Shown here: positions 3,379 through 55,056 of the stretch, in pieces
Position numbering within the stretch: the stretch's first letter is position 1
Layout of the letters: every line of letters starts with the position of its first letter
NCBI GenBank assembly: GCA_003243955.1
Contig: QHCE01000055.1
Location: 1 to 63,557 of the forward strand
DNA from: Acidimicrobiales bacterium
GTDB lineage: Bacteria > Actinomycetota > Actinomycetes > Mycobacteriales > QHCE01
Direction of reading: 5' to 3'
Length of the DNA stretch: 63,557 nucleotides
The notes under the pieces: model-generated
Seen by the model: the letters and a program-made list of their open reading frames with translations, nothing else
The model's database searches: none
Told to the model about the DNA's origin: nothing
Position numbers and translations under genes: made by a program

Positions 3379-3440
3379 GGCGTTTTCCCGGAAAATGTCA
3401 TCAAGACCGGTCGTGTACCGACGGTTTCAGGGAAAACGCC
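3379..3440. repeat. Paired 21-bp palindrome doublet A
   Basis: ggcgttttc-ccg-gaaaatgtc (3379-3399) + 20 bp + gacggtttc-agg-gaaaacgcc (3420-3440). Confidence 0.85.
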
Positions 3441-4600
3441 GTAAGCCACGCTGCCACCGCCACTCCAACACCCAGCGCGAGCGTGGTCGCGGTGCACCAC
3501 CTAGCCAGCTCACTCGACCACGGCACCGCAACGTGACCTTGGGAGAACACGGCCGCGTCGGTAAGTGCCCCCAGCACCGCCAGGCACACGGCGGAAAGCC
3601 CCGCTGTAAACGGTGCTGATGGATGATTGCGCAGCGCCAATACAGCGGCTGCTACGGCGGCGAGTGCGGCCAATGTGCCGTATGTTTCGGTAGTCAATAG
3701 CTGCGTGAGCACACCGAGACCTGTTACGCCGGCATCCAGCGCCCGACCAACGCTGTCGGTCAGTTCCGCGGCTGTGGCCAGAATGAGTAGACCACCCAGA
3801 GCGATGTTGGCTGCACGGGTACCGCGAGTGATTCTGCGCATCCCTGCCATCAGTACCACTATTGCGCAGACCACACCGAACATCCCCGCCCACCACCAGG
3901 AAGTCTGCGGGGGTGGTAGATAGTCCAACGTTCCGCGCAGCTCGACCGCAGCCGAGCTCACCTGGGTCGTGGACAAAAACGTGGCGCGATCGCGCTGTCC
4001 GCCCTCGATTCGCAGCGCGATCTTCCATACGCGGATTCGATGCTGGTGGTCGGAGGACTGGCGCACTACCGGCGGCTGTTGCGTGCTCATCCAATGGGTG
4101 CGGTGATCATGCCATCGAATAGTTGAAGTATCGCTGAGTTTGCGCCAGTGCGGCGCTGCGGCAGGACTAACACTCATATTATCGGGCTGCTGCGACACAC
4201 CCAGATCGCCGTTGATATACACCGAGGCGGATGCGGTGTTAGCGTACGTGCTCTTTGGTGTGATACGCAGGTATGGCTCGCCTCCGTAACCGAGCACTTC
4301 AATGGTGCGACCAGTGTGGTTCCTCAGTTGAAGTCGGGTGCCGTTCTGCACCACTGCCACAGACAAGCCGGTCACAGCAGGCGCTATCTCAGTCAGCCGG
4401 GTCACATAATCACTGGCGGCAGGTGAACTTTCCGCGTGCGCCTGCGCGGCCGAGGCCGGAGCGAGCACAGTTGTGAGCGCGCACAGTAGAGCTATAACGA
4501 ACCTAGCGGCGCAGAACTTAGCGGTGCAGAACCTAGCGGCGCCCACTTTAACTACCCTGCGCAGCCTGCCTCGGCGCGGCTGCGCAGGGTAGGCAATCAT
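3401..4600 (-). CDS. Exported/membrane hypothetical protein (signal peptide, soluble domain, ~5 C-terminal TM helices)
   Basis: 399 aa; AQA-H cleavage-like site, WHDHRTHWM motif, hydrophobic C-terminus; last gene of doxX-dsbA operon. Confidence 0.75.
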   Translation of the reverse strand: MIAYPAQPRRGRLRRVVKVGAARFCTAKFCAARFVIALLCALTTVLAPASAAQAHAESSPAASDYVTRLTEIAPAVTGLSVAVVQNGTRLQLRNHTGRTIEVLGYGGEPYLRITPKSTYANTASASVYINGDLGVSQQPDNMSVSPAAAPHWRKLSDTSTIRWHDHRTHWMSTQQPPVVRQSSDHQHRIRVWKIALRIEGGQRDRATFLSTTQVSSAAVELRGTLDYLPPPQTSWWWAGMFGVVCAIVVLMAGMRRITRGTRAANIALGGLLILATAAELTDSVGRALDAGVTGLGVLTQLLTTETYGTLAALAAVAAAVLALRNHPSAPFTAGLSAVCLAVLGALTDAAVFSQGHVAVPWSSELARWCTATTLALGVGVAVAAWLTAFSLKPSVHDRS

Positions 4601-4618
4601 GAAGGTCGCCGCCTACGG

Positions 4619-5494
4619 CTACTTCGCCGCATCGTGCGTCGGCGCAGCGCTGCTTCCTGAATTTGCGGCAGCGTCGGCGATGGCATGTTTAAGTTGTTCG
4701 ATGAAATCTTCCATGCTGCTCCTGGGCTTTGGGAGGAGCTGTTTACCGTTCACCGCCACGGTTGGCGTGCCGGTGACACCGGCTTTGTCCGAGGCATTGG
4801 TTAGACCGAGCGCCCAGTCCTGATACGTGCTCTTGCGCACGCAGGTCGCGAATTCTGGCGAGTCCAGTCCTGAGAGCTTTCCCACCTTGACAAGGTCATC
4901 GCGAGTGAGTCTGCCGTTCTGCTTGAACACCTCAGTGGTAAAACGTGGGAGCGCATCCTTGTCGCTGGCGCAGCCCGCCGCCGCCGCCGCCCACACTGAG
5001 TAGCCGTTGAGGATACTGATCGGGTGATAGGTCAGCTTCACTGAACCTGACTGCACCTGCTGAGCGAAATAGTTCCCGACGGCGCGTTCAAAATCTCGAC
5101 AGTGCGGACATTCAAAGTCCACGTAGAGATCCACTTTAGCCGGCGCGTTGTCCTGGCCAATGGTGACTCCCTCACGGGTAGCGCCGTGGGGAATCGCATA
5201 GTGCGTCGCTGGTCTAGCGGTACGGTCCGGTAGATCCGAGGGCTGCAGCGTGCGGTACACCACCCACCCCACGACCGCGGCAATGAGCAAAATGCCAGCC
5301 CCAAGCAACGACCGGTAGGTCACCGATCGACGACGTTGTGTCGATCGATGTGCCGCGATTCGCTGCTGATCCACCATGCGCGGTTCGCGGGAGCGCCGCG
5401 GAGTCTGCTTGGGGGGCGCACTGCCCGCGGAGCTCTGCTTGCCGCCCGCGCCGCTCGATGTGTGAGGCTTCTTTTTCTTGTCTCGCTGACTCAT
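4619..5494 (-). CDS. Membrane-anchored DsbA-family thioredoxin-fold protein
   Basis: DFECPHC active site, GVTGTPTV cis-Pro loop, one N-terminal TM. Confidence 0.9.
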   Translation of the reverse strand: MSQRDKKKKPHTSSGAGGKQSSAGSAPPKQTPRRSREPRMVDQQRIAAHRSTQRRRSVTYRSLLGAGILLIAAVVGWVVYRTLQPSDLPDRTARPATHYAIPHGATREGVTIGQDNAPAKVDLYVDFECPHCRDFERAVGNYFAQQVQSGSVKLTYHPISILNGYSVWAAAAAGCASDKDALPRFTTEVFKQNGRLTRDDLVKVGKLSGLDSPEFATCVRKSTYQDWALGLTNASDKAGVTGTPTVAVNGKQLLPKPRSSMEDFIEQLKHAIADAAANSGSSAAPTHDAAK

Positions 5495-6081
5495 TCACTC
5501 ATCCTCTGTGTGCTGGTGTTGGCTGCGGCCACGCGGGTGGTGGATGCAGCATTGTCGTTGGATGCAGAATTGCTTTCAGATGCGGCTCGGTTGTCCAGGC
5601 TGAACCGGCTAGCCGGCCAGATCGCCAGTAGCGCCGCGATCAGCAGCAGTGCGCTGTCCCGGACAATTTCGCGCAAGTACTGGGTGGACTGTTCAGCGGT
5701 GAGGTCTCCGCCGCCGCCAAAGCATCCGCAGTCGATTCGCAGGCCACGCGCCGCCGCTGAAATGATCCCGATCAGGAAAGCCACCTGCAAGACGGCCGAA
5801 ACCGCCGCCCCGAAACGCGTGGCGAACCCGATCAGCAGCGTTACCCCCAACGCTATCTCCACCATGGGGAGCGCGGCGCCTACCACTGGCTCGATCGTGT
5901 TGGGCAGCAGCCGGAATGCCCGAACTGCCGCCACAGAGCTTTCCAGATCACTGACTTTGCTCGCACCGGCCCAAATCCAGAAACCGGCCAGGACGAGCCG
6001 GGCTATCAGGGATAGCCACGGTTGGTAGCAACCTCTAAGCCGGTTGGAGCGACTTTGCGCCGCGAGAGCAGTTCTCATCAC
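5491..6081 (-). CDS. MauE/DoxX-family redox membrane protein
   Basis: LPMVEIALG and RGLRIDCGCFG motifs; 4-bp overlap with dsbA-like gene. Confidence 0.88.
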   Translation of the reverse strand: MMRTALAAQSRSNRLRGCYQPWLSLIARLVLAGFWIWAGASKVSDLESSVAAVRAFRLLPNTIEPVVGAALPMVEIALGVTLLIGFATRFGAAVSAVLQVAFLIGIISAAARGLRIDCGCFGGGGDLTAEQSTQYLREIVRDSALLLIAALLAIWPASRFSLDNRAASESNSASNDNAASTTRVAAANTSTQRMSE

Positions 6082-6086
6082 GCTTA

Positions 6087-6115
6087 TAGTCGCGGCCGGC
6101 GTAGCAAAAGTTCCC
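6087..6115 (-). promoter_or_regulatory. SigC-type ECF promoter GGGAAC-N17-CGACTA (probably leaderless doxX transcript)
   Basis: Minus strand gggaac-ttttgctacgccggccg-cgacta, 5 nt before GTG at 6081; same motif at 6827. Confidence 0.75.
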
Positions 6116-6123
6116 GGCCGATC

Positions 6124-6185
6124 GACGTTTTCGCCGAAAACGACGGAAGTGACGGCCTGATCGCGGCATTTTCCCTGAAAACGCC
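6124..6185. repeat. Paired 21-bp palindrome doublet B
   Basis: gacgttttc-gcc-gaaaacgac (6124-6144) + 20 bp + ggcattttc-cct-gaaaacgcc (6165-6185). Confidence 0.85.
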
Positions 6186-6189: not shown

Positions 6190-6774
6190 TTACACATGGG
6201 CGGCATGTCGCAGCGCGGCGATCAGGTCTTCTCGGGCGCGAGCTACCCGAGATCTGATGGTGCCTATGGGCACTTGTTCGATCTGCGCGACTTCGGCGTA
6301 GCTGCATCCTAGTACCGCGGTGAGCACGAAAGCGGTGCGTCGTTCATCGGTGAGCTCGCCCAGGATGTCAGCGGTGCTTGCGTGTCCTGCCGGATCGGGT
6401 TCGGTGGCTGGGCGAACCTTGCGCAGCAGCGAGTCGAGCATGCGGCGTCGCTGGACGCCCCGTAGATGATCTGCGCAGGTGCGTCGCGCAATGCCGAGCA
6501 GCCAGGTGCGTGCACTGGATCGGGCCAGGAAGCTGGGAAGGGCGCGAAATGCCCGCAGGTAGACCTCTTGGGTGAGGTCGTCTGCGTCATTGGACGAGCA
6601 CAGCGCGGCACAGTTACGCCACACATCGCTTTGAGAAAGCCGGACAAACGCTGCCTGGGCGATAACGTCACCGTCTTGAGCCCGTAGTGCCCACTCGGTG
6701 AGTTCGTCTCGAGGCTGTTCGTGCACGTTCGCTGAGCCACCGAAGTCAGAGCCACTGAAGCCACCGCGGATCAC
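6190..6774 (-). CDS. ECF sigma factor, SigC-like
   Basis: ADDLTQEVYLRAF, ARTWLLGIARR, SYAEVAQIEQVPIGTIRSRVARAR; copper-gene context. Start may be GTG near 6726. Confidence 0.9.
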   Translation of the reverse strand: MIRGGFSGSDFGGSANVHEQPRDELTEWALRAQDGDVIAQAAFVRLSQSDVWRNCAALCSSNDADDLTQEVYLRAFRALPSFLARSSARTWLLGIARRTCADHLRGVQRRRMLDSLLRKVRPATEPDPAGHASTADILGELTDERRTAFVLTAVLGCSYAEVAQIEQVPIGTIRSRVARAREDLIAALRHAAHV

Positions 6775-6862: not shown

Positions 6863-7510
6863 ATGAACACTGAACTGGCATGTGCCGACGTGCGTGCGGC
6901 GGTGTCGGCGTTGTTAGACGGGGAAGAACCAGGCGTACTTGACCGGCAACTTGTTGGCCACCTTCATGAGTGTGCGCAGTGTGAGCGTTGGCGCTCTCTC
7001 GCATTGCAAGCCAGCGCCGCCGCGCGACAGACCGTACCGCTGGCCCCTGACTCACAGCAGCTGACAGCGCGGGTACTCACGGCGGTGGCTGGCGATCCCG
7101 ATGCGGCACAGCGCCGTCAGGCGCAGCGCGTTAAGCGCCGTGCGCTGCGGGTGGCGCTGGCCGCAACCGCGCTGGGTCAATTGCTGCTCGCTTTGCCGTT
7201 GTTGGGCACTACCGTGGGGCCAGCCGCGCGACTGAGCTGGGAGACAGGTTCGCTGAACATCGCAATTGCGGTGGGTTTTGGATACGCGGCGCTGCGGCCG
7301 ACATTGGCTGTGGCGCTGTTGCCGATTGCGGTAGTCCTCGCCGTTTTCTTCCTGACCGCCGGTGTGCACGACGTTAGTGCTGATCCAGCCACGATGTCCT
7401 ATCACGCCGGGCATTTGGTCGTGCTGCTGCAGGCTGCTCTGTTGTGGTCATTAGCACGGATTCCGCTGCCGCGGCCGTCCCAGGCGTTTTCCCTGAAAAC
7501 ATCAGCATGA
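6863..7510 (+). CDS. zf-HC2 membrane anti-sigma factor-like protein
   Basis: C..VR...SALLDGE and HLHECAQC (HxxxCxxC), four TM segments. Confidence 0.85.
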   Translation: MNTELACADVRAAVSALLDGEEPGVLDRQLVGHLHECAQCERWRSLALQASAAARQTVPLAPDSQQLTARVLTAVAGDPDAAQRRQAQRVKRRALRVALAATALGQLLLALPLLGTTVGPAARLSWETGSLNIAIAVGFGYAALRPTLAVALLPIAVVLAVFFLTAGVHDVSADPATMSYHAGHLVVLLQAALLWSLARIPLPRPSQAFSLKTSA

Positions 7511-7544
7511 GTCACTTTTTTCCGACGTTTTCGGGGAAAACGTC
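7483..7544. repeat. Paired 21-bp palindrome doublet C
   Basis: ggcgttttc-cct-gaaaacatc (7483-7503) + 20 bp + gacgttttc-ggg-gaaaacgtc (7524-7544); spans the ATGA gene junction. Confidence 0.85.
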
Positions 7545-32686: not shown

Positions 32687-32748
32687 GGCATTTTCCGGGA
32701 AAACGCTGGTTGAAAAACAAAATTCATGACGTTTTCCCGGAAAACGCC
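32687..32748. repeat. Paired 21-bp palindrome doublet D
   Basis: ggcattttc-cgg-gaaaacgct (32687-32707) + 20 bp + gacgttttc-ccg-gaaaacgcc (32728-32748). Confidence 0.85.
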
Positions 32749-35540: not shown

Positions 35541-35633
35541 AGTGAGGGTGAGGCAGATGCATGATTGTCGCTGAATTGAAGTTCAGGCCGCGTTGTCGGT
35601 GCCAGCGATGGCGCTGAGATAAAGGAGATTGTC

Positions 35634-35918: not shown

Positions 35919-35970
35919 GGCTGGGTCGCGAGAAGCGATTGTCATCTGATGTGCGTGGGGAGGAGGAGCG

Positions 35971-36414
35971 ATGCTGGTCCGGACTTTTACCAGTACCTGG
36001 AACCTGCGTACCAAAATCTATGCGTTTGAAGATGTCAAGGTTCCGATCAAGGGTGGCATCACTGTGCCGCAAATCCTTGCCGGCCTTGGTGTGGCCATGG
36101 TCTGGATCCCGCTCTGCCTAATCATTCAGATGCCCTCATGGATTCCCAATCCCGGCATTCTGGTCGGAATTATGGGAGTTCCGCCGGTGCTTGCGCTGCT
36201 GAAAGCTGATACGCCAGTAGCGCATGAGAAAACCACGGAAGAGTGGCTCACTTCCTGGCTTACCCGCCAGAGCGAACCGCGCCGAGTAGGGGCACTAGGG
36301 GTGGTTCCCAAAGGCCACAAAGTGCTCTTAACCGCCACGCATTGGGTGCCCCGTTGGGGTCGCGATGAGTGGCTTCGATCCACAGCGCGTTTCCAGGAAA
36401 GAGGTAGCGGCTAA
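35971..36414 (+). CDS. TcpE/ConD (VirB3-like) membrane protein
   Basis: RTFTSTWNLRTKIYAFEDVKVP..ITVPQ N-terminus, 2 TM, coupled to virB4. Confidence 0.78.
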   Translation: MLVRTFTSTWNLRTKIYAFEDVKVPIKGGITVPQILAGLGVAMVWIPLCLIIQMPSWIPNPGILVGIMGVPPVLALLKADTPVAHEKTTEEWLTSWLTRQSEPRRVGALGVVPKGHKVLLTATHWVPRWGRDEWLRSTARFQERGSG

Positions 36415-39584: not shown

Positions 39585-39590
39585 CCGACC

Positions 39591-41720
39591 ATGACGGCCG
39601 CCGTGCACCATAGACGGTTGGCGAGAAGCGAGCTTTGCGTTGTCTCCGCCAGCGGCACCTCAGCCGCGTTTGTTGCGGAACTTTCCCGCCAGGCCGAGCT
39701 TTCCGCGCACCGGGTTCGGTTGGTCGCCGCTACATCAGGACCAAGTTGGCGGCGAGTGCTGATTAAGGTGGTGTGGCCTATATCGCCACGGTCCAAATCT
39801 AGATCAGCCTACCGCGGTCTACGGCTACCGGGGGTTGTTGCGTTGTTGCTCGGGGTGCTGCTTTCGGCGTATTTCCTAAATGCGGGCAGCGTTTCCGAAC
39901 ACTCGAATAAGCTTGTCGGAGGCTCATCCCTAGCCGCAGCGGGTTGCCCATTCATTCCACTGCCGGATACAGCTCCGAATCCCTTTGGGGACAACATAGA
40001 TCTCAAGCCATTTAAGCAGAGTTTGAATAACTTCTGCGATGCGCTCGGGAACTTTGCCAAAAATCTAAAAGATCACATACCCCAAGGCATTAAAGATGGC
40101 TTGAAATCGGCGTTCAATCAAAATCGATTCTGCTTTTCTTCCCGAGTGGCTCTAAGCCCAGAAGATCCGAATCAAGGGCTCAATAGCTTGATGACCCGGG
40201 GAGTCGGATTCTTGTTTGGATCGGACAAGGGTAACAGTACTTCTCCAACCACATGGAACCAGTACGGTACCGCGGGGGCTACGTGGAATACATATTTTCT
40301 GGACTGTTGGAATAGTGGCGGAAATGAAACCGTCAACTACGCGGCAAATTTCATATTTGATGTATCAAAAGTATTTTCTGTGATTGCTATTTTGCTGTTT
40401 CAGGAGACTTTTAACAATCAGATTGTTGATTATTTTTTCGTGGCGCATAATGGTGCTCCGCAGTCTCCGATAGATACCATACTTCAGCAACTCAATGTTG
40501 GTATCTATGTGAACTTCTTCGCTGTCGCGGTGGTCCTTGGCGCACTCATACTGCTGTACAACAACGTGCTCCGCGGTAATGGTCTCTCCGACGCGCTAGG
40601 CAAGATCGGAATCATGGTTGCCGTAGCGGCTTTTGCCGCGGTGTTCGTCTCACAGGGCAGTAGCTACGTACAGAAAGCAAATGCCTATACCAATGAGGTG
40701 GGGGCATCAGTGCTGTCCGCGCTGACTGGCACTAGCTGCACGGACTCTGCTGGCAAAGCCATTACGACCACACCTTACGACTGCGCCGCACAGACCATGT
40801 ATGACGCTTTGGTGTTTCGTCCGTGGGCCAGCGGATACATCGGGGAATTGGAAGTACTGAACAATCCTCGCGAGACGCAGGCCCGGCGTGCGCTAGCCAT
40901 GAAGATGCTGCAGCAAAACGCCTACTCTTCGGAAGAAAGTGCTGAGATTGCACGTACGGGTACCTCGGCGCAACGGTTCATTGACGCAAAGCAGCAGAAC
41001 CGAAAGGACATGGTTCTTGGCTGGGGGGCGAGATTCATTGCCAAAGATGGCCAGCCCGCGACTACCGCATCCGATCCAAACTCTAAATTCGACCCCAACT
41101 CGTGGCGACCATACAGCCACGTGGAGACCGATCGACCCGAATATTGGAATCTCTGGAGCGGTGGAGCGGCTAATCAGCAGATGGTTGTGGCTACGCTGGC
41201 GCTCATCGCAAGTTTTGCGATGGGTACAGTACTTATCACGCTGACGGCGGCCTATTTAGTACTGCAGCTGCTGACCGTGTTGTTGGCGATAGTCGCACCG
41301 ATCATCTTTCTTATTGGGTTGGTCCCCAAATTTGGTCTTCCCGTTGTACTGCATTGGGGTGAGACCTTTATGCAGCTGTTTTTGAAACGGATAGCCCTAG
41401 TGGTCTTCGTCGGTGTGCTGTTGGCGATGTTGCACATTGTTTTCGCGCTAGCGTTGCCGTGGTGGATGCAGCTGATCCTGGTACTCGGCGTAGCTATAGC
41501 GGGCCGGGGGCACCGGCGTCAGTTTACTAATTGGGCATCCTCCGGTATGCGCGGTATGGGAAACGTCGCCGAAATCGGAACTGGCGGGGTGCGGGGCATA
41601 ATGCATACTCGTAGATCACTGAAACAGGCCCGGCAAGGTTGGCGGTCGTCGGACGGTCTCGCACTGAATGAACGGGTCGGGGTAGCCGGCCGCTCCGGAT
41701 ACGCGGGATTTGATCGCTGA
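39591..41720 (+). CDS. VirB6/ConG/TcpH-like polytopic membrane protein, paralogue 1
   Basis: Multiple TM clusters around a large loop; shares TTWxxYGxAGxxWxTYFLxC and PWAxG motifs with paralogues. Confidence 0.72.
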   Translation: MTAAVHHRRLARSELCVVSASGTSAAFVAELSRQAELSAHRVRLVAATSGPSWRRVLIKVVWPISPRSKSRSAYRGLRLPGVVALLLGVLLSAYFLNAGSVSEHSNKLVGGSSLAAAGCPFIPLPDTAPNPFGDNIDLKPFKQSLNNFCDALGNFAKNLKDHIPQGIKDGLKSAFNQNRFCFSSRVALSPEDPNQGLNSLMTRGVGFLFGSDKGNSTSPTTWNQYGTAGATWNTYFLDCWNSGGNETVNYAANFIFDVSKVFSVIAILLFQETFNNQIVDYFFVAHNGAPQSPIDTILQQLNVGIYVNFFAVAVVLGALILLYNNVLRGNGLSDALGKIGIMVAVAAFAAVFVSQGSSYVQKANAYTNEVGASVLSALTGTSCTDSAGKAITTTPYDCAAQTMYDALVFRPWASGYIGELEVLNNPRETQARRALAMKMLQQNAYSSEESAEIARTGTSAQRFIDAKQQNRKDMVLGWGARFIAKDGQPATTASDPNSKFDPNSWRPYSHVETDRPEYWNLWSGGAANQQMVVATLALIASFAMGTVLITLTAAYLVLQLLTVLLAIVAPIIFLIGLVPKFGLPVVLHWGETFMQLFLKRIALVVFVGVLLAMLHIVFALALPWWMQLILVLGVAIAGRGHRRQFTNWASSGMRGMGNVAEIGTGGVRGIMHTRRSLKQARQGWRSSDGLALNERVGVAGRSGYAGFDR

Positions 41721-41874
41721 TGAGACCTACAATTACCGCAAACAGCGCGGATGGACCGCGGAACTACGCCTATGCTGGTGTTATTGCACCACGGCTGTAC
41801 GGCGAACCCGGCACCTCTGGGGGAGCAACCCGGCATGCAGCGGGGCACGTGTATCACGAGCGATCGGACACCTG

Positions 41875-44304
41875 ATGAGCCAGTACCTATCGCCAAGTCC
41901 TGTCGGGACTACCCCCGCGCATGCTCGTCGAACGCCTGCGCTACGGGTATGTACGCCTGTCGGCACAAACGCGGATTTTATCGCCGAGCTACACTCCGAT
42001 TGCACGGTGATGCAGGCATCAGGTGGGGTGTCGTGGTTGCGCCGAGCGGCGCGCTGGCTGCTACCCACGCTTGGGCGGCGAGCCAAGTCAGCCGTTGTGC
42101 TGGTCGCGATAGTCCTGGCCGTGCTGCTAGGTAATTTCAGTGTGCTGCCACGCCACAATGATCCAGTAGGTGCCGCATCGGTGGCGGTCGCCTTCCCTAT
42201 CGAGTGTGGTCCGCTGAAGTTTGCTTGCGATGAGCTCGATGCCATAGTTAGCTCTATTGGAACGTTTATCGCCGATGGGCTACGGGGAATTGTTGATAGC
42301 GCGATCAGTCCCAACAGTTGGTGTAATCGCATCACTATGGCGCCGGAGAGGCCCGACACCGGCTGGAGCGGAAGTATTCTTTCGGCGGCCCGAAGCAAAA
42401 GTCAATTTTTCGAGAGCTACAACACCGACGCCGGTACCACCTGGTCTAGGTATGGTGCCGCTGGGACAACATGGAATACCTATTTTTTGGATTGTCTCTC
42501 GGCTGGAAATATCGCAAACTTTGCCGCTAATGCTGTTTTCGATTTTGCCAAGCTCGTTTCGGTTCTCGCCATAGTAATATTTCAGCAGACGTTCAATAGT
42601 GGACTGCTCAATATCTTTTTGGGCGGAGACCCGCCTCCTGTACAGCAGATAATCGATAGCCTAAACCTGCAAATTTATGCAAACCTCGCCGCGCTGGCTA
42701 TTGTAATCGGTGCGCTCATACTTGCCTACCGCGCAATTCTCCGGGGTTTTGGTATGGCGGACTTTTTAAGCAAGTTCCTGGTTATGGTCGCAGTTTCTGC
42801 ATTTGCGGTGCTATTTTTCCACAACGCTATTCCCTGGATTCGGTGGGGTAACCAGCAAGTAAATGACATTACTAACAGCGTGATGACCGCGCTTCGCGGC
42901 AGTGAATGCACCAATGCTGAAGGTAAACCAATACAGCTGAAACCCGTGGATTGTACGGCCGAAAGCGTATACAACACACTGGTGTATACACCGTGGGCCA
43001 ACGGTGAGGTTGGGTCGCTCAGTTCGACGAATGGCCAGGGCAATACCGCAGACGACAAGCGCAAACTCGCCGCACGGATCTTGGATCAGCAAGCTTTCAC
43101 CTGGGCTGATGTTAAGGGAGTGGACACTGAGATCATCGGCCAAAGGGTGAAATCAACGGAGGGTCCCATCACTGGCGCTCGTGTGGACTCAGGGCTGATA
43201 GATAAGGCCAAAGCTAAAGTCGCGGATCGTGACAAAATGGTTAAAGATGATTGGGGTCTGGTCATTCGAGATGACAAAGGTAAAGAAACCCCGTTTAATC
43301 CCGAAGGCATAGAGGGCTACTCCCAGGCCCATCCCACCAAACAAAGTGAGACCGTGTGGTCCATGTGGTCGGGAGGCAAAGGCGGCGAGCGCTTCGGTAT
43401 AGCGGTGCTGGCCGTTGTTGGTGCCTGGGCGTTTGGTGGAATGCTGATCGCTATCGCTTTTACCTATTTGGTGCTACAGATCGCTACGGTGTTGTACGCG
43501 CTCGTCTCGCCTCTCGCCTTCTTGGCCGGGTTAGTACCGGTGTATGGCACGCGAGTGTTCTTGGCTGTAGCGGAGGGATTTTTAGGCACATTCATCAAAC
43601 GGGTCGCTATGGCAGTGTTCGTCGCGCTACTCCTCACGTTGTATCAGGTGATTCTGGGCGCTGAGGGGGTTCCGTGGTGGCTACAGATGGTGTTGATTCT
43701 AGCCATTGCCGGAGGCGGTGCTAGTTATCGCAAGAAACTGACTTCGCTGTCTACGTTGGGATTTGGCGGCGGCGGCGGTGGAGGAGGCGGTGGTGGCTTG
43801 GGTTCATCGGCGGCCAGAGCATCCGCTATGCGAAGCACGTGGCAAACCGCTCGTGATCTGGCCATTATCGACCGGGTAGCCGCCGCCACTCGCGCTGGGG
43901 CCAATCCTGGCTCGGGTGGCAGCGGTGTTCGATCGGGCGGCTTAGTGAATCACGGCTCCTCTGAGCGTATTTTGCCACGCGATCAGCAAGCGGCGGCTCG
44001 CAACGCCGCCCGTTCCGGCAGGCAGCGAAATTACACGCCGGGGTCACGCCCGGATGGCCGGACGTCGGGCCGATATCCCGTAAACGGTTCAGGTCCAGGA
44101 GGGACCCGGGCGGTGAACGCGTCACCCAGAGCATTGAATCGAGGGAACGTTTACAACGCGCGGCAACAGCATGCCCAGCCGCAACACGCTTCACCGCAAC
44201 AGCATGCCCAGCCGCAACATTCCCAACCGCAGCCACAATCACTACCTCCGGGTCGACAGCCGCGCCCGGATCGGCCACCGGGGAAGGGCATGGGTAATGG
44301 TTAG
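41875..44304 (+). CDS. VirB6/ConG/TcpH-like polytopic membrane protein, paralogue 2
   Basis: Same motifs; poly-Gly and Gln/Pro-rich tail. Start uncertain (ORF open from 41710). Confidence 0.72.
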   Translation: MSQYLSPSPVGTTPAHARRTPALRVCTPVGTNADFIAELHSDCTVMQASGGVSWLRRAARWLLPTLGRRAKSAVVLVAIVLAVLLGNFSVLPRHNDPVGAASVAVAFPIECGPLKFACDELDAIVSSIGTFIADGLRGIVDSAISPNSWCNRITMAPERPDTGWSGSILSAARSKSQFFESYNTDAGTTWSRYGAAGTTWNTYFLDCLSAGNIANFAANAVFDFAKLVSVLAIVIFQQTFNSGLLNIFLGGDPPPVQQIIDSLNLQIYANLAALAIVIGALILAYRAILRGFGMADFLSKFLVMVAVSAFAVLFFHNAIPWIRWGNQQVNDITNSVMTALRGSECTNAEGKPIQLKPVDCTAESVYNTLVYTPWANGEVGSLSSTNGQGNTADDKRKLAARILDQQAFTWADVKGVDTEIIGQRVKSTEGPITGARVDSGLIDKAKAKVADRDKMVKDDWGLVIRDDKGKETPFNPEGIEGYSQAHPTKQSETVWSMWSGGKGGERFGIAVLAVVGAWAFGGMLIAIAFTYLVLQIATVLYALVSPLAFLAGLVPVYGTRVFLAVAEGFLGTFIKRVAMAVFVALLLTLYQVILGAEGVPWWLQMVLILAIAGGGASYRKKLTSLSTLGFGGGGGGGGGGGLGSSAARASAMRSTWQTARDLAIIDRVAAATRAGANPGSGGSGVRSGGLVNHGSSERILPRDQQAAARNAARSGRQRNYTPGSRPDGRTSGRYPVNGSGPGGTRAVNASPRALNRGNVYNARQQHAQPQHASPQQHAQPQHSQPQPQSLPPGRQPRPDRPPGKGMGNG

Positions 44305-45982
44305 AGACGGTGAGCAAATAACCGGACCTAGCCCACACCACGATCGGTCCTCTCGAGCTGTGCGTGGCGCGCGGCGGCGTCGCCTTGTCATGGAGCTGCC
44401 TCGGCAGCTATCCACCCGAGCCCTACGTGGAGTGCGGTCGGCGCTGCGCGCAGCGGTTCGAAACGTATGGCGCGGTATCGCTGGTGCGGGTCCGGCGGCG
44501 ATGGCTGCGCTGCGGCGCAGTGTTGCGACTCAGCGCACTATTCGTCCGGAGCCGATCGGTCCGCGTAAACGTAACCTGCGCCGGATTTACTCCATCGCGC
44601 TGCTGGGTGTGGCGGCCCTGATTGTGGTAGCGCGGATCAATAATGCCCAAGGCTTTTCTACGGCGTTTTTCATAGCGCTACTGCTGGGTTTGATTTTCAT
44701 TGCCTGGACGGGGTATCGCAGTGCGTTGGCCACGGCGGCTGCGATCGGGTGGTGGCTGATCACAACACCGCTGATCTCACTAGCCGCCGCCTCAGGTCTT
44801 CCGGTGCAAGAGGTTTTGGTGCGCGCCGCTACCTCAAACGAAGCCGTTATCGGTACCGGTATCGCGGTGTGGGTCTGCGCGGTGCTCATGCGGGCACGCC
44901 GCAGCTGGATCACCATTCTCGGGTGTTGGTTCTTAAATGTGGCGGCGATTTTAGCCACAGGCGCCCTTGCGCCACGCCTCGCGCTTGCCGGGGGCTGGCT
45001 GGCTATAGCCCTGTACTTGGGGTGGCGAGCCGGATGGCTGCTGACCGCCTATGATCGGCTCAACGGCCGAGCTCGAATGGGCCGCGTTTTCCAGGTGGCT
45101 ACCGAGGAACAGTACGAGGTCTATGGCCACCTGGCGGAGCTTGGCAACGGCTTTGTCCGCCGATATCAGCTGGCCGTGCCCGACGAATATAACCCAGCCA
45201 CAACATTGGACGCACTAGTTGTGGGACCTACGGGGCTGTTTCAGATCACCGCGGTGGACGGTTTAGGCCGGATCGTGGTGAACACCAGCGAACGACGCCG
45301 GGTCACGGTAGAGGGCGCTTCCATTGATGCTGAACTCACCGATATTGCCCGTACGGCGCAGGCGTTGGCCCGTGCGCTGCGGGTGGAAGTTGTGCCGCTA
45401 GTCGCCATGTGCGGTTCAACATTTCCCGAAGGCAACCACGGCCTGATCTCAATCGCGATAACGCTTCCGCCGCCACAAGCCACAGACGGCCGCGAAACCA
45501 AAGCCGATCTGATTCCGTTGACGCTGATTGACGCGGAGCTATTGGCTCGTCGGATCGCTTTTGGTTCGGCGGTGTACACCACTGGGCAGGTGCAGCGCAT
45601 CATTCACCGCGTGGGCACTGTGCTCTGGCCGGCCGCCGGTGCTGCTGATCGACGCATCACTCGCCGGCGCCGGGGCACTAAGCGAGATACTTTCGCCCCG
45701 GGTGTCGAGGTGGAATGGGTCGATGAGTCAGGCATTTGGTCCGGATGGGTATGTGTTTCTCGGGTGACCGTACTAGATGAGGTCCCTAAAGGTCCGCTCG
45801 CGAGTACGCTTTCAGTAAAAGACAAAGTGGTCTGGATCGTGGCAAAGGCAGAATGGGATCGAGCGCGCAGCGTTGGCAGTGATCCAAGCCCCGAGCTAGT
45901 GCAACCAGTGGCATCTAGTGCGCTTCGGTTAGCTACGCCTAATAAGCATCAGACATCTCCGGCAGAGGACGGCGCATCGTGA
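44297..45982 (+). CDS. Multi-TM membrane protein with degenerate NERD-like domain
   Basis: ~6 TM, then TLDALVVGPTGLFQITAV..GRI resembling NERD IDHxxxGPxGxFxIETK; overlaps both neighbours. Confidence 0.6.
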   Translation: MVRDGEQITGPSPHHDRSSRAVRGARRRRLVMELPRQLSTRALRGVRSALRAAVRNVWRGIAGAGPAAMAALRRSVATQRTIRPEPIGPRKRNLRRIYSIALLGVAALIVVARINNAQGFSTAFFIALLLGLIFIAWTGYRSALATAAAIGWWLITTPLISLAAASGLPVQEVLVRAATSNEAVIGTGIAVWVCAVLMRARRSWITILGCWFLNVAAILATGALAPRLALAGGWLAIALYLGWRAGWLLTAYDRLNGRARMGRVFQVATEEQYEVYGHLAELGNGFVRRYQLAVPDEYNPATTLDALVVGPTGLFQITAVDGLGRIVVNTSERRRVTVEGASIDAELTDIARTAQALARALRVEVVPLVAMCGSTFPEGNHGLISIAITLPPPQATDGRETKADLIPLTLIDAELLARRIAFGSAVYTTGQVQRIIHRVGTVLWPAAGAADRRITRRRRGTKRDTFAPGVEVEWVDESGIWSGWVCVSRVTVLDEVPKGPLASTLSVKDKVVWIVAKAEWDRARSVGSDPSPELVQPVASSALRLATPNKHQTSPAEDGAS

Positions 45983-48621
45983 GGCTCACTAACAGCCAGA
46001 ACCTCGGAAACCAGCAGTACGGCGGCGCGGGGTCCGGTATGGACAGCGTCGCGGTCGGAATCATATCGGGTGTCATCCTGGCGGCCATGATTGTGGGATT
46101 CGTACTCAGCCTGTTGTTTTGGTTCTCTGGTCAGCTTTCTGGCCTGATCTGGGGCGGTAACTGGCCGAATGCCGCCCCTAGCGATTCGGTGCGCATCTTC
46201 ATCAAAGCGTTCTCGAATTTGGGGGATCCGGCAGCTGCCTGGCCAGCGCCAGCTCGCGATGACGTGGGCCCAGCCGCTGTGGTGTACATCCTGTTTTTGA
46301 TTCTGGCCGCACCCGTGGCGTGGGGGCTCACTCTTGGTGGTCAGTACGCAATGCGCTTTCGGCGCCGCCGGGAAAACCGTGTATTCCGGCTGGGCTTTGC
46401 CGACGGTGGTGAAATACGTAGACTGCTGTCCTCGCGAGCGGTAATAAAAAAGGCCAAGTCCGTCCGGCCGTCTTATAAGGGCAAGCACAATATCAACCCG
46501 CAAGATGTCGGGTTCTTTTTGGGCAAAGACACTCGTTCGCACCGAAAGCTCTACTGCTCAGTGGAAGACGTCATGCTGGTGGTGGCCCCGCCCCGGCAGG
46601 GTAAAGACGTACATTTTTGCATCCCCAACATCATCGACGCTCCTGGTCCGTGTGTAGCGACCACTACGCGTGCTGACATGTTCGCTGCTACTGTCTCGCT
46701 ACGTGAAAAGGTAGGCCACGTCTGGGTCTTTGACCCTAATGATATGACTAACTGGCCTAGCCAGCTGCGTTGGTCGCCGGTGAATGGTTGTCACGAGCCA
46801 CTGGTGGCGCTGAACCGCGCGGCGGCTTTTGTGGCCGGCGCCGGAGTGGGTGAAGGTGTGCAGAATGCGTCCTACTGGACTGGTGTCGCTACCGCTATTT
46901 TGCGCTGCTATTTCTTGGCCGCGGCTACCTCTGGCCGCACGATCACCGATGTGGTGCGCTGGTCGACCCAGCCCACCAACCCGGAACCCATCCAGATTTT
47001 ACGCAAGCAAGAAACACTTGGCCGGGCGCCGCAAGGCTGGGCGGGTGAGTTAGAGAGCGGGGCTTCGGCCGACGGTGAAACCCGGGGCAACATGTGGGCA
47101 GGTGTCCGACGAGCGCTGGACTGCTTCGCTGATCCACGAGTCTTGGCCGCGTGTTCACCGGGCCCGGGCGATGTGTTCGACGTCGCAACCTTCGTTAAGG
47201 GCCGTAATACCCTGTATGTTTTGGGAAAAGAAAAGAAGAACGGTAGCGTCGCGCCGCTGGTCACAGCGATGATGGAAGACATTTTTGACCAAGTGCGCAG
47301 GATCGCTAGCCGGTTGCCCAACAGCCGCATCGATCCACCGCTTACCGTTGAGCTCAATGAGGTGGCCCATATCGCGCCCATGCCGAACCTGCCGGGCTAC
47401 ATGGGTGACTCCGGTGGTTTCTCGATTGCGCTGCATGTGTACTTGCAGTCGCTGGGGCAGGCGCGCGGCAAGTGGGGCAACGATGAAGCGGCTGTTATGT
47501 GGGACACCGCGGCCATCCGGGTGGTAATGGGTGGTTCGGGTTATGTCAACGACCTTGAGGACATCTCCCGACTGCTCGGTGAGGTAGACGAGAAGACAAA
47601 GAGTGTGTCGACCGGCTCTGGCGGCAGAAGTACGTCCTATAGCAAACAGAAACGGCGTGTACTCACGCTTGATGAGCTACGGACACTGAAATTTGGCACC
47701 GCCGTAGTGATTGCGCGTGCCGCGCGCCCAGTCGAGGCCAAGCTGACCCCATACTTTAAGCGCAAGGACGCTAAAGAAATCTCTGCTGGGCAAGCACGGG
47801 TCGGTAAAGTGATTGCCGCGGAAGAGAATCCGATGAATGCCTTCTCTGGGCTGACGTCGACCGGTTTGTTAACTCCACCCGATAGTAGTGGCGCTGGTGG
47901 AGCGGGTGCGTATTCAGGCAGCGGCGGTGGCGGCAACGGAGGTGGGGGAGGCGGCGGAGCTGGCGTAGCGCTGCCCGCGGCTGCGCTTCCAGCTGGAGCA
48001 GCTTACGGGCATGACGGTTACTCCGCGGCTAACCCTGGTTACGCCAATGCCTCCGCCCAGCAGGGGTTTGTGCAGCAAAGTCCTGCCTGGCAGTCCACCG
48101 CCCCAAGCCAACCTCCGCAGACGTGGGGTGCTCCCGCTGCCGCCACCGCGCCAAGTGTGGAGCCACCACCTCGTGCGGCGTACCAGCTCCCGGGACCATC
48201 GGGTTGGGGCTCTGGTTCGGCACCGGAAACCGCGTATCCAACGGCTCCGCACCCACCAGCGGCGATCCCCGCTGCATACGAGACGCCACTGGATGCCCAG
48301 GCCTATCTGGAGCAGGTCGGCCCACAGCAGCCGGTGCCACCGACGTTCCAGCCCGCTGAGCCTCAATCCCAGAGTGGCACGCTTCCTCAGCTTTACCAAC
48401 CTGGTGCAGTCAGTCAGCCTAGTTACGGACAGTCGTCAAGCTATGACGCTGGTGCCTATAGTGCGCAGATGCCAGGGGCGGCTGTGGCCACCAATGGATA
48501 CGGCGCCGCGAGCCCTCCGCCTGCGGCCACCGCTGAGCAAGAGCGTCCGGCTGGCCCTAAACTTGCCTCAGGTTGGGGACCGGTCCGCGGACCGACCAAG
48601 AGTGACGCTGATCGAGACTGA
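45979..48621 (+). CDS. virD4: VirD4/TraG-like type IV coupling protein
   Basis: Two N-terminal TM, APPRQGKD, VFDP, RIDPPLTVELNE, LQSLGQARGKWG, LEDISRLLGE; long low-complexity tail. Confidence 0.88.
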   Translation: MRLTNSQNLGNQQYGGAGSGMDSVAVGIISGVILAAMIVGFVLSLLFWFSGQLSGLIWGGNWPNAAPSDSVRIFIKAFSNLGDPAAAWPAPARDDVGPAAVVYILFLILAAPVAWGLTLGGQYAMRFRRRRENRVFRLGFADGGEIRRLLSSRAVIKKAKSVRPSYKGKHNINPQDVGFFLGKDTRSHRKLYCSVEDVMLVVAPPRQGKDVHFCIPNIIDAPGPCVATTTRADMFAATVSLREKVGHVWVFDPNDMTNWPSQLRWSPVNGCHEPLVALNRAAAFVAGAGVGEGVQNASYWTGVATAILRCYFLAAATSGRTITDVVRWSTQPTNPEPIQILRKQETLGRAPQGWAGELESGASADGETRGNMWAGVRRALDCFADPRVLAACSPGPGDVFDVATFVKGRNTLYVLGKEKKNGSVAPLVTAMMEDIFDQVRRIASRLPNSRIDPPLTVELNEVAHIAPMPNLPGYMGDSGGFSIALHVYLQSLGQARGKWGNDEAAVMWDTAAIRVVMGGSGYVNDLEDISRLLGEVDEKTKSVSTGSGGRSTSYSKQKRRVLTLDELRTLKFGTAVVIARAARPVEAKLTPYFKRKDAKEISAGQARVGKVIAAEENPMNAFSGLTSTGLLTPPDSSGAGGAGAYSGSGGGGNGGGGGGGAGVALPAAALPAGAAYGHDGYSAANPGYANASAQQGFVQQSPAWQSTAPSQPPQTWGAPAAATAPSVEPPPRAAYQLPGPSGWGSGSAPETAYPTAPHPPAAIPAAYETPLDAQAYLEQVGPQQPVPPTFQPAEPQSQSGTLPQLYQPGAVSQPSYGQSSSYDAGAYSAQMPGAAVATNGYGAASPPPAATAEQERPAGPKLASGWGPVRGPTKSDADRD

Positions 48622-48727
48622 TTCGAAACTCATCAAACGGGGTCCTGATACGAGCAGGGGGCGACATGCACACGTGGAGTAGTGCTTGCCAATCGTCGCT
48701 GTGTTGGGAAGTCGGGGTAGCACCACC

Positions 48728-50941
48728 ATGGCCGACCTAACAGTTATTTCCCGAGGTAGGCAACCGCGTTTGGTGGTTAGCTCACTTAGTGGCATCAATG
48801 CGCAATTTGCTCAGCTGCTGCAGACTAATCCGGCCCCCTTGCAGGCCGGTTCCGGCTACCGCAAACTGCTGCGCAGTGGATTCACCATACTGCGGAGAAA
48901 GCACCGTTGGCGAAAACCAGTCGTAGGCGTCATGCTCGGTGCGTTTGTGGCCACGTTTTTGCTGGGAATGAGCGTATCGCCAGGCGCTGAAGGGCAACGG
49001 GTAGGCGCTATCACGGTTGCACAAGCGGAAGAGGGTGATTGTCTCGCCGACGACTTTAATATTCCCATTCTCCCCGGATTCCTGCAGGGTGTGATCAAAA
49101 AACCGATTAACGCGGTATGTCGAGCCTTTCATGCTGCCGCAAAGCTTATATCGGAATATGTCCTCAATCCCATCGGAAACTTTTTGTGGAGCGCATTTCA
49201 GGCCAATCTGTGTTCGTCGCGTACCAGCATTGATCCTGATGACCCCCAGGCTGGGCTGAGCAGTTTAATGGTGCAAGGCGCGGAAGTTCTGGTGGGTAAG
49301 AATGCTGAATCTCCGGCGCAGACTACCTGGCGAGAATATGGTGTAGCTGGTACTTCATGGGGCACCTACTTCTTGAACTGTACCGATTTTTCTACCCAAA
49401 TACAAAATTACGGTGCAAACTTCGTATTTTCTGTTTCTAAAGTATTTTCGCTCATTGCTATCTTGTTATTTCAGGAGACGTTTAACAGTAAAGTTGTTGA
49501 CTATTTTTTTCTTCCGCAAGGCGGGGCGCCCAAATCGGCTATCGATACCATTGTTAACCAACTCCATTTCGGTCTTTATATGAATATGATGGCTGTCGCT
49601 GTCGTGATCGGTGCCGCTATTATATTGTACAGATCCATCATTCTTAGAGGGGGTTTGGGCGAAGCCCTGAGTAAAATTGGAATCATGGCGCTCGTGGCCG
49701 GTGTAGCGTTGGTGTATGTCAGTCAGGGTTCGCAGATTATTCAGAAAGTTAGCGCCTTTACGGATGAGACGGGTGCAGCGGTACTCGGGGCACTCAGTGC
49801 CGGAGGCTGCAATAACAGTGATGATCGTGCTGTACCAGGTGGTGCGAAGCCATATGAATGCGCCGCGCAAACTATGTACCATGTACTGATTTATATTCCA
49901 TGGGCTAATGGTGAAGTTGGGACCATTGATGTTTTTGGTGATGCCGTCTATAGCCAGCAGCGCAAAGACCTCGCATATCGCATTCTACACCAACAAGCTT
50001 ATGATCGAAAAGAAAGCGGAATAGTTAACAATCCCGCGACCGATGGCGCCGAGCGGTCGAAACAAACTCAAAAGCTTATACAGGCCAAAGAAGACGACCG
50101 GTTCAAGATGGTTAAAGACGACTGGGGAGCGCGGTTTATTGCCAAGGGCGGCAAGCCCGAAGAATTCGCGGTTACCGGCGAAGCCGCGAAGCGCCCCTAT
50201 GAAGACGTAGATGTTGACTACCCAGAATATTGGTTAATGTTCTCGGGAAAAGAGGCTGGGCAGCGTTACATCATCGCAATCATGGCTCTGCTTGCGTCAT
50301 TTTCCTTAGGTCTGGTTCTGATCTCCGTCACGTTCGCGTATCTGGCGCTGCAGCTCATGACGATCGTCCTTGCCATGGTTGCACCAGTGGCCTTCCTAGT
50401 GGGACTGGTGCCAACATACGGGTACCGAATATTCCTCAAGTGGTTTGAGCTTGGCGCCGGGCTGTACATCAAACGACTCGCATTGGTGGTCTTCGTGGGG
50501 ATATTGCTCGGTGGGTTGCAGTTAATCTTCAAAGTACCCGCCCCGTGGTGGCTGCACGTGGTATTCGCTTTCTGTATTGGGTGGTTTGGTCTGGCTTACC
50601 GGCATCAACTCAGTAGTTGGGCCAGTACTGGTATGGAGGGGATGGGTAAGTTCGCGGGCATTGCTACCGGGGGCTTGCTGGGCATGAAAGACGGGGTTAA
50701 ATCCGTCAGATATGCGAAAGCCACCTGGCAGGGTACTCGCGGTTTACCGGCGCGACAGCGAGCTCGGGCGGCTGTGGGTTCGGCATATACCGCGAACCAA
50801 ACCGGCGCCTCACCCGCTCAGTACACTGGTCCGCGGCGCGGAGCCCAAGCAACTGGTGCGGGCAAACCTTTGTCAAAGCGCCAGCAGCGTAAGGCCCAGC
50901 GTCGTTCGTCACGCAACGGCTCCTACACGTATCAGCCCTGA
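48728..50941 (+). CDS. VirB6/ConG/TcpH-like polytopic membrane protein, paralogue 3
   Basis: Most similar by eye to paralogue 1 (SKVFSxIAILLFQETFN in both). Confidence 0.72.
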   Translation: MADLTVISRGRQPRLVVSSLSGINAQFAQLLQTNPAPLQAGSGYRKLLRSGFTILRRKHRWRKPVVGVMLGAFVATFLLGMSVSPGAEGQRVGAITVAQAEEGDCLADDFNIPILPGFLQGVIKKPINAVCRAFHAAAKLISEYVLNPIGNFLWSAFQANLCSSRTSIDPDDPQAGLSSLMVQGAEVLVGKNAESPAQTTWREYGVAGTSWGTYFLNCTDFSTQIQNYGANFVFSVSKVFSLIAILLFQETFNSKVVDYFFLPQGGAPKSAIDTIVNQLHFGLYMNMMAVAVVIGAAIILYRSIILRGGLGEALSKIGIMALVAGVALVYVSQGSQIIQKVSAFTDETGAAVLGALSAGGCNNSDDRAVPGGAKPYECAAQTMYHVLIYIPWANGEVGTIDVFGDAVYSQQRKDLAYRILHQQAYDRKESGIVNNPATDGAERSKQTQKLIQAKEDDRFKMVKDDWGARFIAKGGKPEEFAVTGEAAKRPYEDVDVDYPEYWLMFSGKEAGQRYIIAIMALLASFSLGLVLISVTFAYLALQLMTIVLAMVAPVAFLVGLVPTYGYRIFLKWFELGAGLYIKRLALVVFVGILLGGLQLIFKVPAPWWLHVVFAFCIGWFGLAYRHQLSSWASTGMEGMGKFAGIATGGLLGMKDGVKSVRYAKATWQGTRGLPARQRARAAVGSAYTANQTGASPAQYTGPRRGAQATGAGKPLSKRQQRKAQRRSSRNGSYTYQP

Positions 50942-53904: not shown

Positions 53905-53909
53905 TAGCC

Positions 53910-54185
53910 CTATACGCCCAACTCTCGGGCAACGTCTTCGAACGGCCGCCGGGGTTCGCCATCGGCAGCCGCCATAGTTGCTACATCGTTTGCGTCTTCT
54001 AAAGCAGCGAGCGCTTCGTGGGCGAGCTCGGCGGGCATGACTGCGACCTTTTGCTGTTGGCGTCGATGTAGGTAGATCACCTTGCCGTGCTCAGCTTCAT
54101 CTATCGCACGGTCAATAGGCCCCGCGAGGTCAAACGCGGCGCTTTCGGAGTTACTTACAGGCGAGTTACTTACCGGCTGGGCCAT
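53910..54185 (-). CDS. Cognate antitoxin (Phd-like)
   Basis: Small acidic ORF directly upstream of toxin; LEDAND and PFEDVARELG. Confidence 0.75.
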   Translation of the reverse strand: MAQPVSNSPVSNSESAAFDLAGPIDRAIDEAEHGKVIYLHRRQQQKVAVMPAELAHEALAALEDANDVATMAAADGEPRRPFEDVARELGV

Positions 54186-54244
54186 GCCTCCATCGTAAAC
54201 GAAGACACCACAGTTAGCGCACTCTGGCAGTATCTTGTTTGGTT

Positions 54245-54976
54245 TTAGCGCTTCCAACGTGCGATGATGGTTTCGCCGCCCAGCACCCGGTCTCCCACAG
54301 CGACGCAAGGCAGTGCCGCGCCGACTGGTAAGTAGACATCGGTGCGGGAGCCGAACCGGATTAGGCCAAAGCGCTCCCCAGCGTTCAACCGTTTCCCCAC
54401 CTGGGCTCTATTTACTATCCGCCGTGCGACCAGCCCGCTTCGCTGCGCTACGCCGACCTTGCCGCGGGATGTTTCTAGCAGCGTGTACTGCGCCACATTG
54501 TGCTCAGCACCGCTGGTCTGGGCAGCCGCATAGCCGCCTACTGATTCGGTGATTGCCAGCACTCGACCCGAGACCGGCGAGCGATTGACGTGTACATCCA
54601 GTACAGACAAGAACACCGCGATGCGTAGCCACTCGCCAGCGCCTAGTCGCTCATCGGTGACGTGTCCGATGGAGAGTACGCGGCCATCTGCCGCGGCCAC
54701 CACGGCGTCGGAATCGGTGGGAGTGCGTCGAGTTGGGTCGCGGAAGAACGCTGTGACTGGAACGGCGGCCGCGGCCGGCAGCAGCCATGCTCGAGACCAC
54801 GGCAGCACCGTCTTGGCGACCAACGCCACACCAGTGAGCAGCGCGGCGGCGGCAATACCGTTAACGTCTACCCCCATGTTTGGGGTGAGCTGCACGCGCG
54901 TCTTCCGACCCGATATTAACCCAACGACAGTTCCACTGAAACGAAAAAACCGACGTGCGGCAGGGTAAGGGCTCAT
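54245..54976 (-). CDS. psd: Phosphatidylserine decarboxylase proenzyme
   Basis: FFRDP.R, AADGRV, FLSVLDVHVNRSP, RFGSRTD cleavage motif. Confidence 0.95.
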   Translation of the reverse strand: MSPYPAARRFFRFSGTVVGLISGRKTRVQLTPNMGVDVNGIAAAALLTGVALVAKTVLPWSRAWLLPAAAAVPVTAFFRDPTRRTPTDSDAVVAAADGRVLSIGHVTDERLGAGEWLRIAVFLSVLDVHVNRSPVSGRVLAITESVGGYAAAQTSGAEHNVAQYTLLETSRGKVGVAQRSGLVARRIVNRAQVGKRLNAGERFGLIRFGSRTDVYLPVGAALPCVAVGDRVLGGETIIARWKR

Positions 54977-54994
54977 CGCTATAGATGCTACCGC

Positions 54995-55056
54995 GACGTT
55001 TTCAGGGAAAACGTCGCGGTACGGGTGCTTTTTAGGACGTTTTCCCTGAAAACGTC
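54995..55056. repeat. Paired 21-bp palindrome doublet E
   Basis: gacgttttc-agg-gaaaacgtc (54995-55015) + 20 bp + gacgttttc-cct-gaaaacgtc (55036-55056). Confidence 0.88.

Follow-up and report, generated by a model that had tools for sequence, protein, structure and literature searches.

Fixed-period palindrome doublets dispersed in an Acidimicrobiales genome and the AbiEi-like/Vsr-like nuclease gene that they bracket

We analysed a stretch of 63,557 nucleotides from an Acidimicrobiales bacterium (contig QHCE01000055.1 of assembly GCA_003243955.1), hereafter the window, which is contig C43 of the genome that we call G000 (2.42 Mb, 59.6% GC, 94.8% complete). The window carries five doublets, each composed of two 21-bp palindromes and an intervening 20-bp spacer. 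The doublets are inserted elements of fixed geometry and, on balance, we take them to be the likely binding sites of the nuclease whose gene they bracket, an AbiEi-like/Vsr-like (DUF559) protein which would cut at the doublets and spread them. The element family, its fixed period, its insertion into empty sites, the bracketing of the gene and the predicted two-domain fold of the protein are established.

The ten palindromes of the window occur as five pairs with 41 bp from start to start, at the positions and with the spacers, letter by letter, of the original prediction. The window contains 20 palindrome strand-matches for a chance expectation of 0.26, and none of 100 shuffles came near this number. 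A genome-wide scan allowing up to 2 mismatches returned 72 palindromes in G000, whose neighbour distances below 300 bp were 41 bp (26 times), 39, 42 and 116 bp. With relaxed partners the genome holds 33 doublets, 29 of them at 41 bp and the others at 39, 40, 40 and 42 bp, and 11 of the 72 palindromes are unpaired, so that the spacing is neither random nor the motif mostly present as singletons. The stem pairs CGTC with GRCG around a loop of 3 nt, no tail is present, and across the 29 units no conserved letters were found beyond the 21-bp palindromes. According to a rough gene caller, 13 of the 33 copies lie between co-directional genes, 10 between convergent genes, 5 between divergent genes, 4 inside genes and 1 at a contig edge; 29 are not wholly within a called gene, and two are confirmed inside carB.

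The spacers, formerly described as free in sequence, share a positional consensus. Over the 29 units they are A-rich at positions 4-7 and T-rich at positions 14-17, and the positional A/T score, for which the positions were picked after inspection of the spacers, is 4.55 of 8 compared with 2.03 ± 0.21 in 5000 shuffles (maximum 2.9). Together with the TTTT/AAAA of the palindromes, the spacer tracts form six A/T tracts about 10 bp apart. The spacers of G027, a genome of another family, obey a different consensus, which is thus lineage-dependent. These phased tracts argue against guide RNAs. The suggestion that each unit is a single-spacer, mini-CRISPR-like guide-RNA cassette draws on the repeat-spacer-repeat layout and on the constant spacer length of 20 nt, but the A/T consensus is symmetric and differs in G027, a search of the spacers against the rest of the genome at up to 2 mismatches gave no match except between the two spacers of the nuclease cassette described below, and an Rfam search of the window and 7 doublet loci returned tRNA only, with no match at the doublets; we regard this explanation as scarcely credible.

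The outer flank of a palindrome was found to be the reverse complement of the adjacent spacer over 5-12 nt in 12 of 58 half-units. Such hairpin extensions of at least 5 nt would be expected in 0.45 half-units, and the maximum in 20,000 permutations was 5. In the extended half-units the A-tract of the spacer persists and the flank is enriched in a T-tract (2.4 vs 0.9), so that the flank was probably copied from the spacer.

Comparison with relatives revealed sites devoid of a doublet, and the doublets are insertions. Two in-frame doublets in carB (C23:19585 and 20203) add 23-26 codons with respect to G002, G003, G004 and G027, and at one of the two sites the carB gene of G001 retains a doublet that is decayed but still shows the 41-bp period. 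In the same way, the orthologous stretches of the window sites in G001-G004 hold no motif at up to 3 mismatches, save an unrelated site past psd in G001. The empty sites thus support the earlier idea of a mobile unit resembling a REPIN, a pair of repetitive extragenic palindromic (REP) sequences. A sister lineage of about 89% identity (contigs of runs X10-X12, two studies) does have the first doublet of the window; its spacer is free of indels and differs at 9 of 20 letters, compared with 144 changes in 1323 letters of the mostly coding surroundings, a difference which is suggestive only. Among 400 genomes of the order, 5 contain the fixed-period pattern, and they belong to two genera (28 doublets in G000, 23 in G027, 4 in G001, 4 in G072 and 1 in G043). 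The exact strict doublet was found in none of 59 relatives, looser patterns in 4 of 399 other genomes, and viral contigs gave no exact doublet, which is weak as a negative. Two Paenibacillus matches, with another spacing and no nuclease nearby, were taken as unrelated.

This distribution also bears on whether an ordinary transcription regulator could use the doublets as its operators. Palindromic sites of 21 bp at a fixed phase, the 5 copies between divergent genes, and the repressor activity of AbiEi-family proteins (available text of PMC7319586) would suit a regulon. We nevertheless consider it very unlikely, as the majority of copies are found within coding sequence, at gene 3' ends or between convergent genes, the neighbouring genes have no common function, and the motif is missing from the orthologous sites of four relatives and confined to the 5 genomes of the order mentioned above.

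The DUF559 gene is single in G000, being the only full-length match of 5 obtained with profile A1. It lies outside the window, in a cassette at C2:30670-31817 between greA and a convergent ABC permease gene; no toxin gene follows it. The two doublets of the cassette, at C2:30670 and C2:31756, are direct repeats with 19 of 20 spacer letters identical, while no other spacer pair exceeds 14/20, and the nuclease reading frame extends into the downstream doublet. The gene is an intergenic open reading frame (ORF), neither intron nor intein, and its locus (L001) has no Rfam match. The search for a RAYT (Y1 HUH transposase, PF01797), which had been proposed as a check, found none in G000, where controls were detected in 6 of 14, nor in 6 genomes of the family of G027.

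The greA-permease junction is variable among relatives: in G001 the gene is absent and one decayed doublet is present, in G004 there is a plain hairpin, and contigs of the sister lineage bypass the cassette with 43 letters (X10 and X12, one study) or 7 letters (X11) between the genes. The 43-letter junction matches one palindrome plus spacer by length alone, its letters not being shown. Solo doublets could accordingly be scars of a mobile unit consisting of the whole doublet-gene-doublet cassette, lost by direct-repeat recombination like a solo long terminal repeat, and the single decayed doublet of G001, the gene-free junctions of the sister lineage and the near-identical spacers of the directly repeated cassette doublets would be explained in this way. 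However, a 1.2-kb cassette intermediate would have interrupted carB twice, given its two in-frame doublets, and G000 has one copy of the nuclease gene, its other doublets bracketing no remnants of it. We judge the scar explanation unlikely.

The predicted structure of the G000 nuclease (pLDDT 93.9) consists of two domains. Residues 7-196 of the model resemble AbiEi (6y8q) with a Z score of 10.4, a root-mean-square deviation (rmsd) of 6.0 over 175 aligned residues and a Foldseek E value of 5.8e-4, and residues 201-304 resemble the catalytic domain of I-Bth0305I (3r3p; Z 12.1, rmsd 2.5, 95 aligned); the predicted nuclease domain also resembles 1cw0 (Z 9.8). D236, E247, H253 and D262 are invariant across 116 sequences, and in the modelled two-domain fold these conserved nuclease residues are intact.

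Homologs of the nuclease, labelled in databases as hypothetical protein, AbiEi antitoxin or very-short-patch-repair endonuclease, gave 138 matches in 46 of 60 genomes searched, with up to 14 copies per genome. For the best-scoring 64 of the 138 matches, minus 4 with short or masked flanks, we compared the upstream and downstream DNA; 39 of these 60 loci, which include one unbracketed locus of genome G010, have their own upstream/downstream repeat at a score of at least 40. The corresponding controls were 0/60 for far windows, 1/232 for paralog cross-pairs and 2/600 for cross-genome pairs. An independent metagenome set (80 loci, of which 57 had both flanks and 45 were left once dereplicated) replicated this result at the same threshold, with 20 of 45 loci bracketed compared with 38 of 1980 cross-pairs; a metagenome scan with a single protein as query had given no match. 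Strong inverted repeats are present in 24 of the 39 brackets (control 1/60), with a median span of 60 bp, and the two copies of a bracket differ by 31%/21% in the central 0-9 bp and by 7-12% in the arms, i.e. a variable centre between conserved arms.

The motif that brackets the G000 gene also brackets a 44% identical homolog in G027 and, at a 42-bp period, a 49% identical homolog in the metagenome locus L193. In 142 loci (G010 excluded, some near-duplicates included), a test of periods of 25-70 bp yielded 23 distinct palindrome pairs; these represent six motifs, come from 13 loci and have periods of 40 bp (1), 41 bp (11), 42 bp (9) and 51 bp (2). The original proposal of a bipartite protein-binding site with a spacing of about four helical turns is consistent with this recurrence of a 40-42-bp period in unrelated palindromes beside homologous nuclease genes. 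The 51-bp family of G016 comprises 75 palindromes dispersed genome-wide and was found in none of 3 other genomes tested.

In the genus g10, the nuclease gene is at seemingly one conserved locus in G085 (L161, C57) and G027 (L162, C45). In G085 the gene is interrupted by an internal stop and its doublets are decayed, and in G027 it is intact, with three and two palindromes.

Several observations weigh against the nuclease as the agent that spreads the doublets. What ties the doublet to the enzyme is an association read from genomes, strong against its controls, in which the paralogs among the 60 loci are not independent, and 21/60 genome loci and 25/45 metagenome loci have no bracket. The boundaries of the carB insertions are not resolvable to the base, and the relatives are too diverged for a target-site duplication to be read. 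The doublets predate the present site of the cassette: the sister lineage, about 90% identical and without the gene at greA, seems to hold the first three sites of the window already. In G072, G001 and G043, which have 4, 4 and 1 doublets, a motif-bracketed nuclease was not found (genomes 89-96% complete). Finally, a quick, unfinished tree does not place the nucleases of G000 and G027 as sisters (2 changes needed), so that motif and enzyme do not follow each other in a simple way.

These points can be accommodated if another enzyme spreads the doublets, as REP-type repeats that are either inert or of use to the host, and the nuclease gene merely inserts there as a safe site or has them only as its operator. 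The three genomes with doublets in which no bracketed nuclease was found, the single motif on two separate nuclease branches of the quick tree, and the 35-55% of homologs without brackets are in its favour, as are the 10 of 33 copies between convergent genes, compared with 233 of 1362 background gaps (rough caller), which recall terminator-like REPs. Conversely, each paralog has its own repeat (as the paralog cross-pairs indicate), the 40-42-bp period is common to unrelated motifs beside the nuclease family, and the genomes searched for a RAYT have none. We hold another spreading enzyme to be improbable, and favour a doublet recognised and spread by the nuclease.

In the mechanism that we propose for the nuclease, each 21-bp palindrome would be bound by the AbiEi-like N-terminal part. 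A separation of four helical turns between the palindromes, with A/T tracts every 10 bp or so, would place two bound complexes on one face of a bendable DNA segment, which would explain why the spacer, though drifting in sequence, keeps its length and its A/T phasing. Binding and cutting are proposed by analogy, since AbiEi bends DNA on binding to 23-bp inverted repeats (available text of PMC7319586), and I-Bth0305I, as described in the available text of PMC3239194, is a dimer that contacts up to 60 bp and nicks or cuts. The upstream doublet may also serve as an autorepressing operator of the nuclease gene. The nuclease would cut at or beside doublets, and new insertions would arise as the cut is repaired from another copy or by fold-back synthesis; cut and repair would also write the spacer-complementary flanks and now and then yield deletions.

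Between the upstream doublet and the nuclease gene of G000 there are two DnaA-box-like 9-mers, at positions 734-742 and 751-759 of L001 (C2). Allowing at most 1 mismatch to the consensus, we found such a 9-mer just upstream of 24 of 59 nuclease genes, compared with 2/59 downstream, 0/59 far upstream and 71/2180 ordinary G000 genes. The second, metagenomic set gave 19/45 versus 1/45. The position of this motif suggests a possible coupling to replication.

The pairing works like the REPIN-RAYT system, in which, in the available text of bioRxiv 10.1101/2021.07.10.451892, two conserved short palindromes with a variable spacer are dispersed mostly outside genes in a lineage-specific manner, and a single-copy enzyme gene is flanked by its own repeats. 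It departs from that system in the RAYT and in the terminal tag: the partner here has a predicted AbiEi-like plus Vsr-like PD-(D/E)XK fold and not an HUH fold, and the unpaired GTAG-type tag at the ends of REPINs is absent from the 29 units. Moreover, the doublets have a strict 41-bp period and occur in tens of copies (33), whereas REPINs typically number hundreds, and the associated nuclease gene itself changes site.

The CGTC-tagged REPs (Di Nocera 2013, PMC3733652) are similar in their 8-9-bp stems, their dimers with variable spacers, the in-frame position of some copies and the lack of an associated tyrosine transposase. As described in the available text, consensus figures aside, those repeats have an unpaired CGTC tag, a CCA tail and a 4-5-nt loop, whereas the doublets have a paired CGTC, a 3-nt loop and no tail; the doublets are not a CGTC REP as defined there. 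The main text of that work does not contain the word Actinobacteria, names no nuclease partner and, as far as it goes, leaves open the mobilising enzyme of RAYT-less palindromic repeats. It also describes Rickettsia RPE-4 and RPE-6, palindromic repeats lying in frame in conserved proteins and adding 20-30 residues; the doublets of carB resemble them in this arrangement, but the phylum is another one and no nuclease partner is named in the available text.

The AbiE type IV toxin-antitoxin systems (AbiEi, Rv2827c; available text of PMC7319586) share with the G000 cassette the AbiEi-like fold and paired repeats of about 21-23 bp before the gene. They differ in that the doublets stand on both sides of the gene and are dispersed genome-wide, in the gap (20 bp in doublets, 3 for AbiEi, 13 and 4 for Rv2827c), and in that the G000 protein has a predicted fused nuclease domain and no toxin gene following. 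The EDxHD homing endonuclease I-Bth0305I and Vsr are similar by predicted fold, with the catalytic domain behind an N-terminal DNA-binding part, and the I-Bth0305I contact length of about 60 bp, in the available text of PMC3239194, fits the 62-bp doublet unit. Unlike I-Bth0305I, the G000 nuclease is free-standing, has another DNA-binding domain and is flanked by its presumed sites rather than disrupting one. With regard to a miniature inverted-repeat transposable element, which has terminal inverted repeats, a fixed target-site duplication and a cognate transposase, the doublet unit is an inverted repeat overall, and at the carB sites the relatives are too diverged to show a duplication.

In the literature that we searched, sparse for subscription papers and extending to the main texts of REP surveys, we found no description of a link between DUF559 and repeats. 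PMC3424549 groups DUF559 with Vsr and a homing endonuclease, and its available text makes no link to repeats. PMC2267715 describes the Mycobacterium tuberculosis stem-loop families Myt-1 and Myt-8, which could be repeats of the doublet kind; the word endonuclease is absent from its main text.

Tentatively, and with rather more doubt than assurance, we propose a second, RAYT-independent class of repeat-enzyme system, in which AbiEi-like/Vsr-like nucleases, common across actinomycetes and often multi-copy, would each recognise a private two-site element of about 60 bp with a helically phased ruler of 4 or 5 turns, repress themselves through this element under DnaA-box control, and spread copies of it over the chromosome, some of them in frame within core genes. 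The nuclease is a candidate enzyme of non-RAYT fold for the spread of palindromic repeats, with a defined putative substrate and a measurable spacing rule. If the proposal is correct, these nucleases would amount to a large natural collection of site-specific enzymes with targets readable from the gene-flanking DNA, and would provide enzyme-target pairs amenable to bench tests. It would also give a role to the very common proteins annotated under the three labels cited above, and offer an explanation for the odd deletions and in-frame loops of actinomycete genomes.

Within the window, doublet 1 (3379..3440; palindromes 3379-3399 and 3420-3440, spacer 3400-3419) covers the 3' end of the ORF 3401-4600 on the minus strand. 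It had been placed at the end of a tRNA-side duplication, and the 891-1050/3213-3372 repeat indeed stops 6 bp before it. Doublet 2 (6124..6185) lies 4 bp past the stop of a minus-strand extracytoplasmic function (ECF) sigma gene (6190-6774), and the hairpin of its right palindrome is lengthened by 5 nt of spacer-complementary flank. Doublet 3 (7483..7544), at the junction between an anti-sigma gene (6863-7510) and copCD, provides the anti-sigma stop. Doublets may be translated, as had been claimed, in that the predicted ORFs 3401-4600 (FSLKP...) and 6863-7510 (FSLKTSA) enter them. Doublet 4 (32687..32748) is located between the divergent genes 31983-32615 (minus strand) and 32726-33742 (plus strand), and its motif is missing from the same site in G001 and G003. 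Doublet 5 (54995..55056), which has psd (54245-54976) on one side and a plus-strand kinase/response-regulator remnant (55085..55804) on the other, occupies the breakpoint of a deletion of 2.5-3.4 kb, and its left hairpin is lengthened by 6 nt. Its assignment to the truncation point of the kinase was borne out: G002, G003 and G004 have an extra 2.5-3.4 kb ahead of the remnant, homology to the relatives begins about 29 bp after the doublet, and the doublet fills the corresponding gap of about 90 bp.

The remnant at 55085-55804 consists of a kinase C-terminal part joined by further deletions to a response-regulator part and is frame-broken with respect to G002 and G004. Doublet 4 was considered as an attachment (att) site of the neighbouring type IV secretion system-like cluster, and this was ruled out because the start of the cluster is syntenic in the four relatives G001-G004. 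The conjugation-like cluster itself (33861-50941; TcpC, VirB4-like AAA_10, coupling protein), flanked by guaB and guaA, looks resident rather than a recent integrative and conjugative element, since its part up to 38000 is syntenic in the same relatives.

A conserved, seemingly non-coding stretch follows tRNA-Leu at 3215-3375 (copy 891-1050), with a tRNA-Leu fragment copy at 710-784. It shows 83% identity in G001 with a long, near-invariant core, and pieces occur in G002 and G004. Rfam gave nothing at E ≤ 1 on 3130-3460, and the stretch is possibly an RNA of a new type; the duplication 891-1050/3213-3372 looks like an integration-site relic. At the site orthologous to doublet 1, G001 carries a different inverted-repeat element of about 63 bp (C70, about 1530-1600; L070), as if repeat families replaced one another there.

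In G000, a divergent intergenic region at C23:30361-30497 has at least 3 clustered palindromes, a decayed doublet and a further copy. A second structured repeat family of about 85 bp, unrelated to the doublets, is present in the window at 24440-24520, 26701-26785, 58813-58899 and 62545-62630; no nuclease gene was seen between adjacent copies. By blastn, this family occupies 66 loci genome-wide and has many matches in G001-G003.

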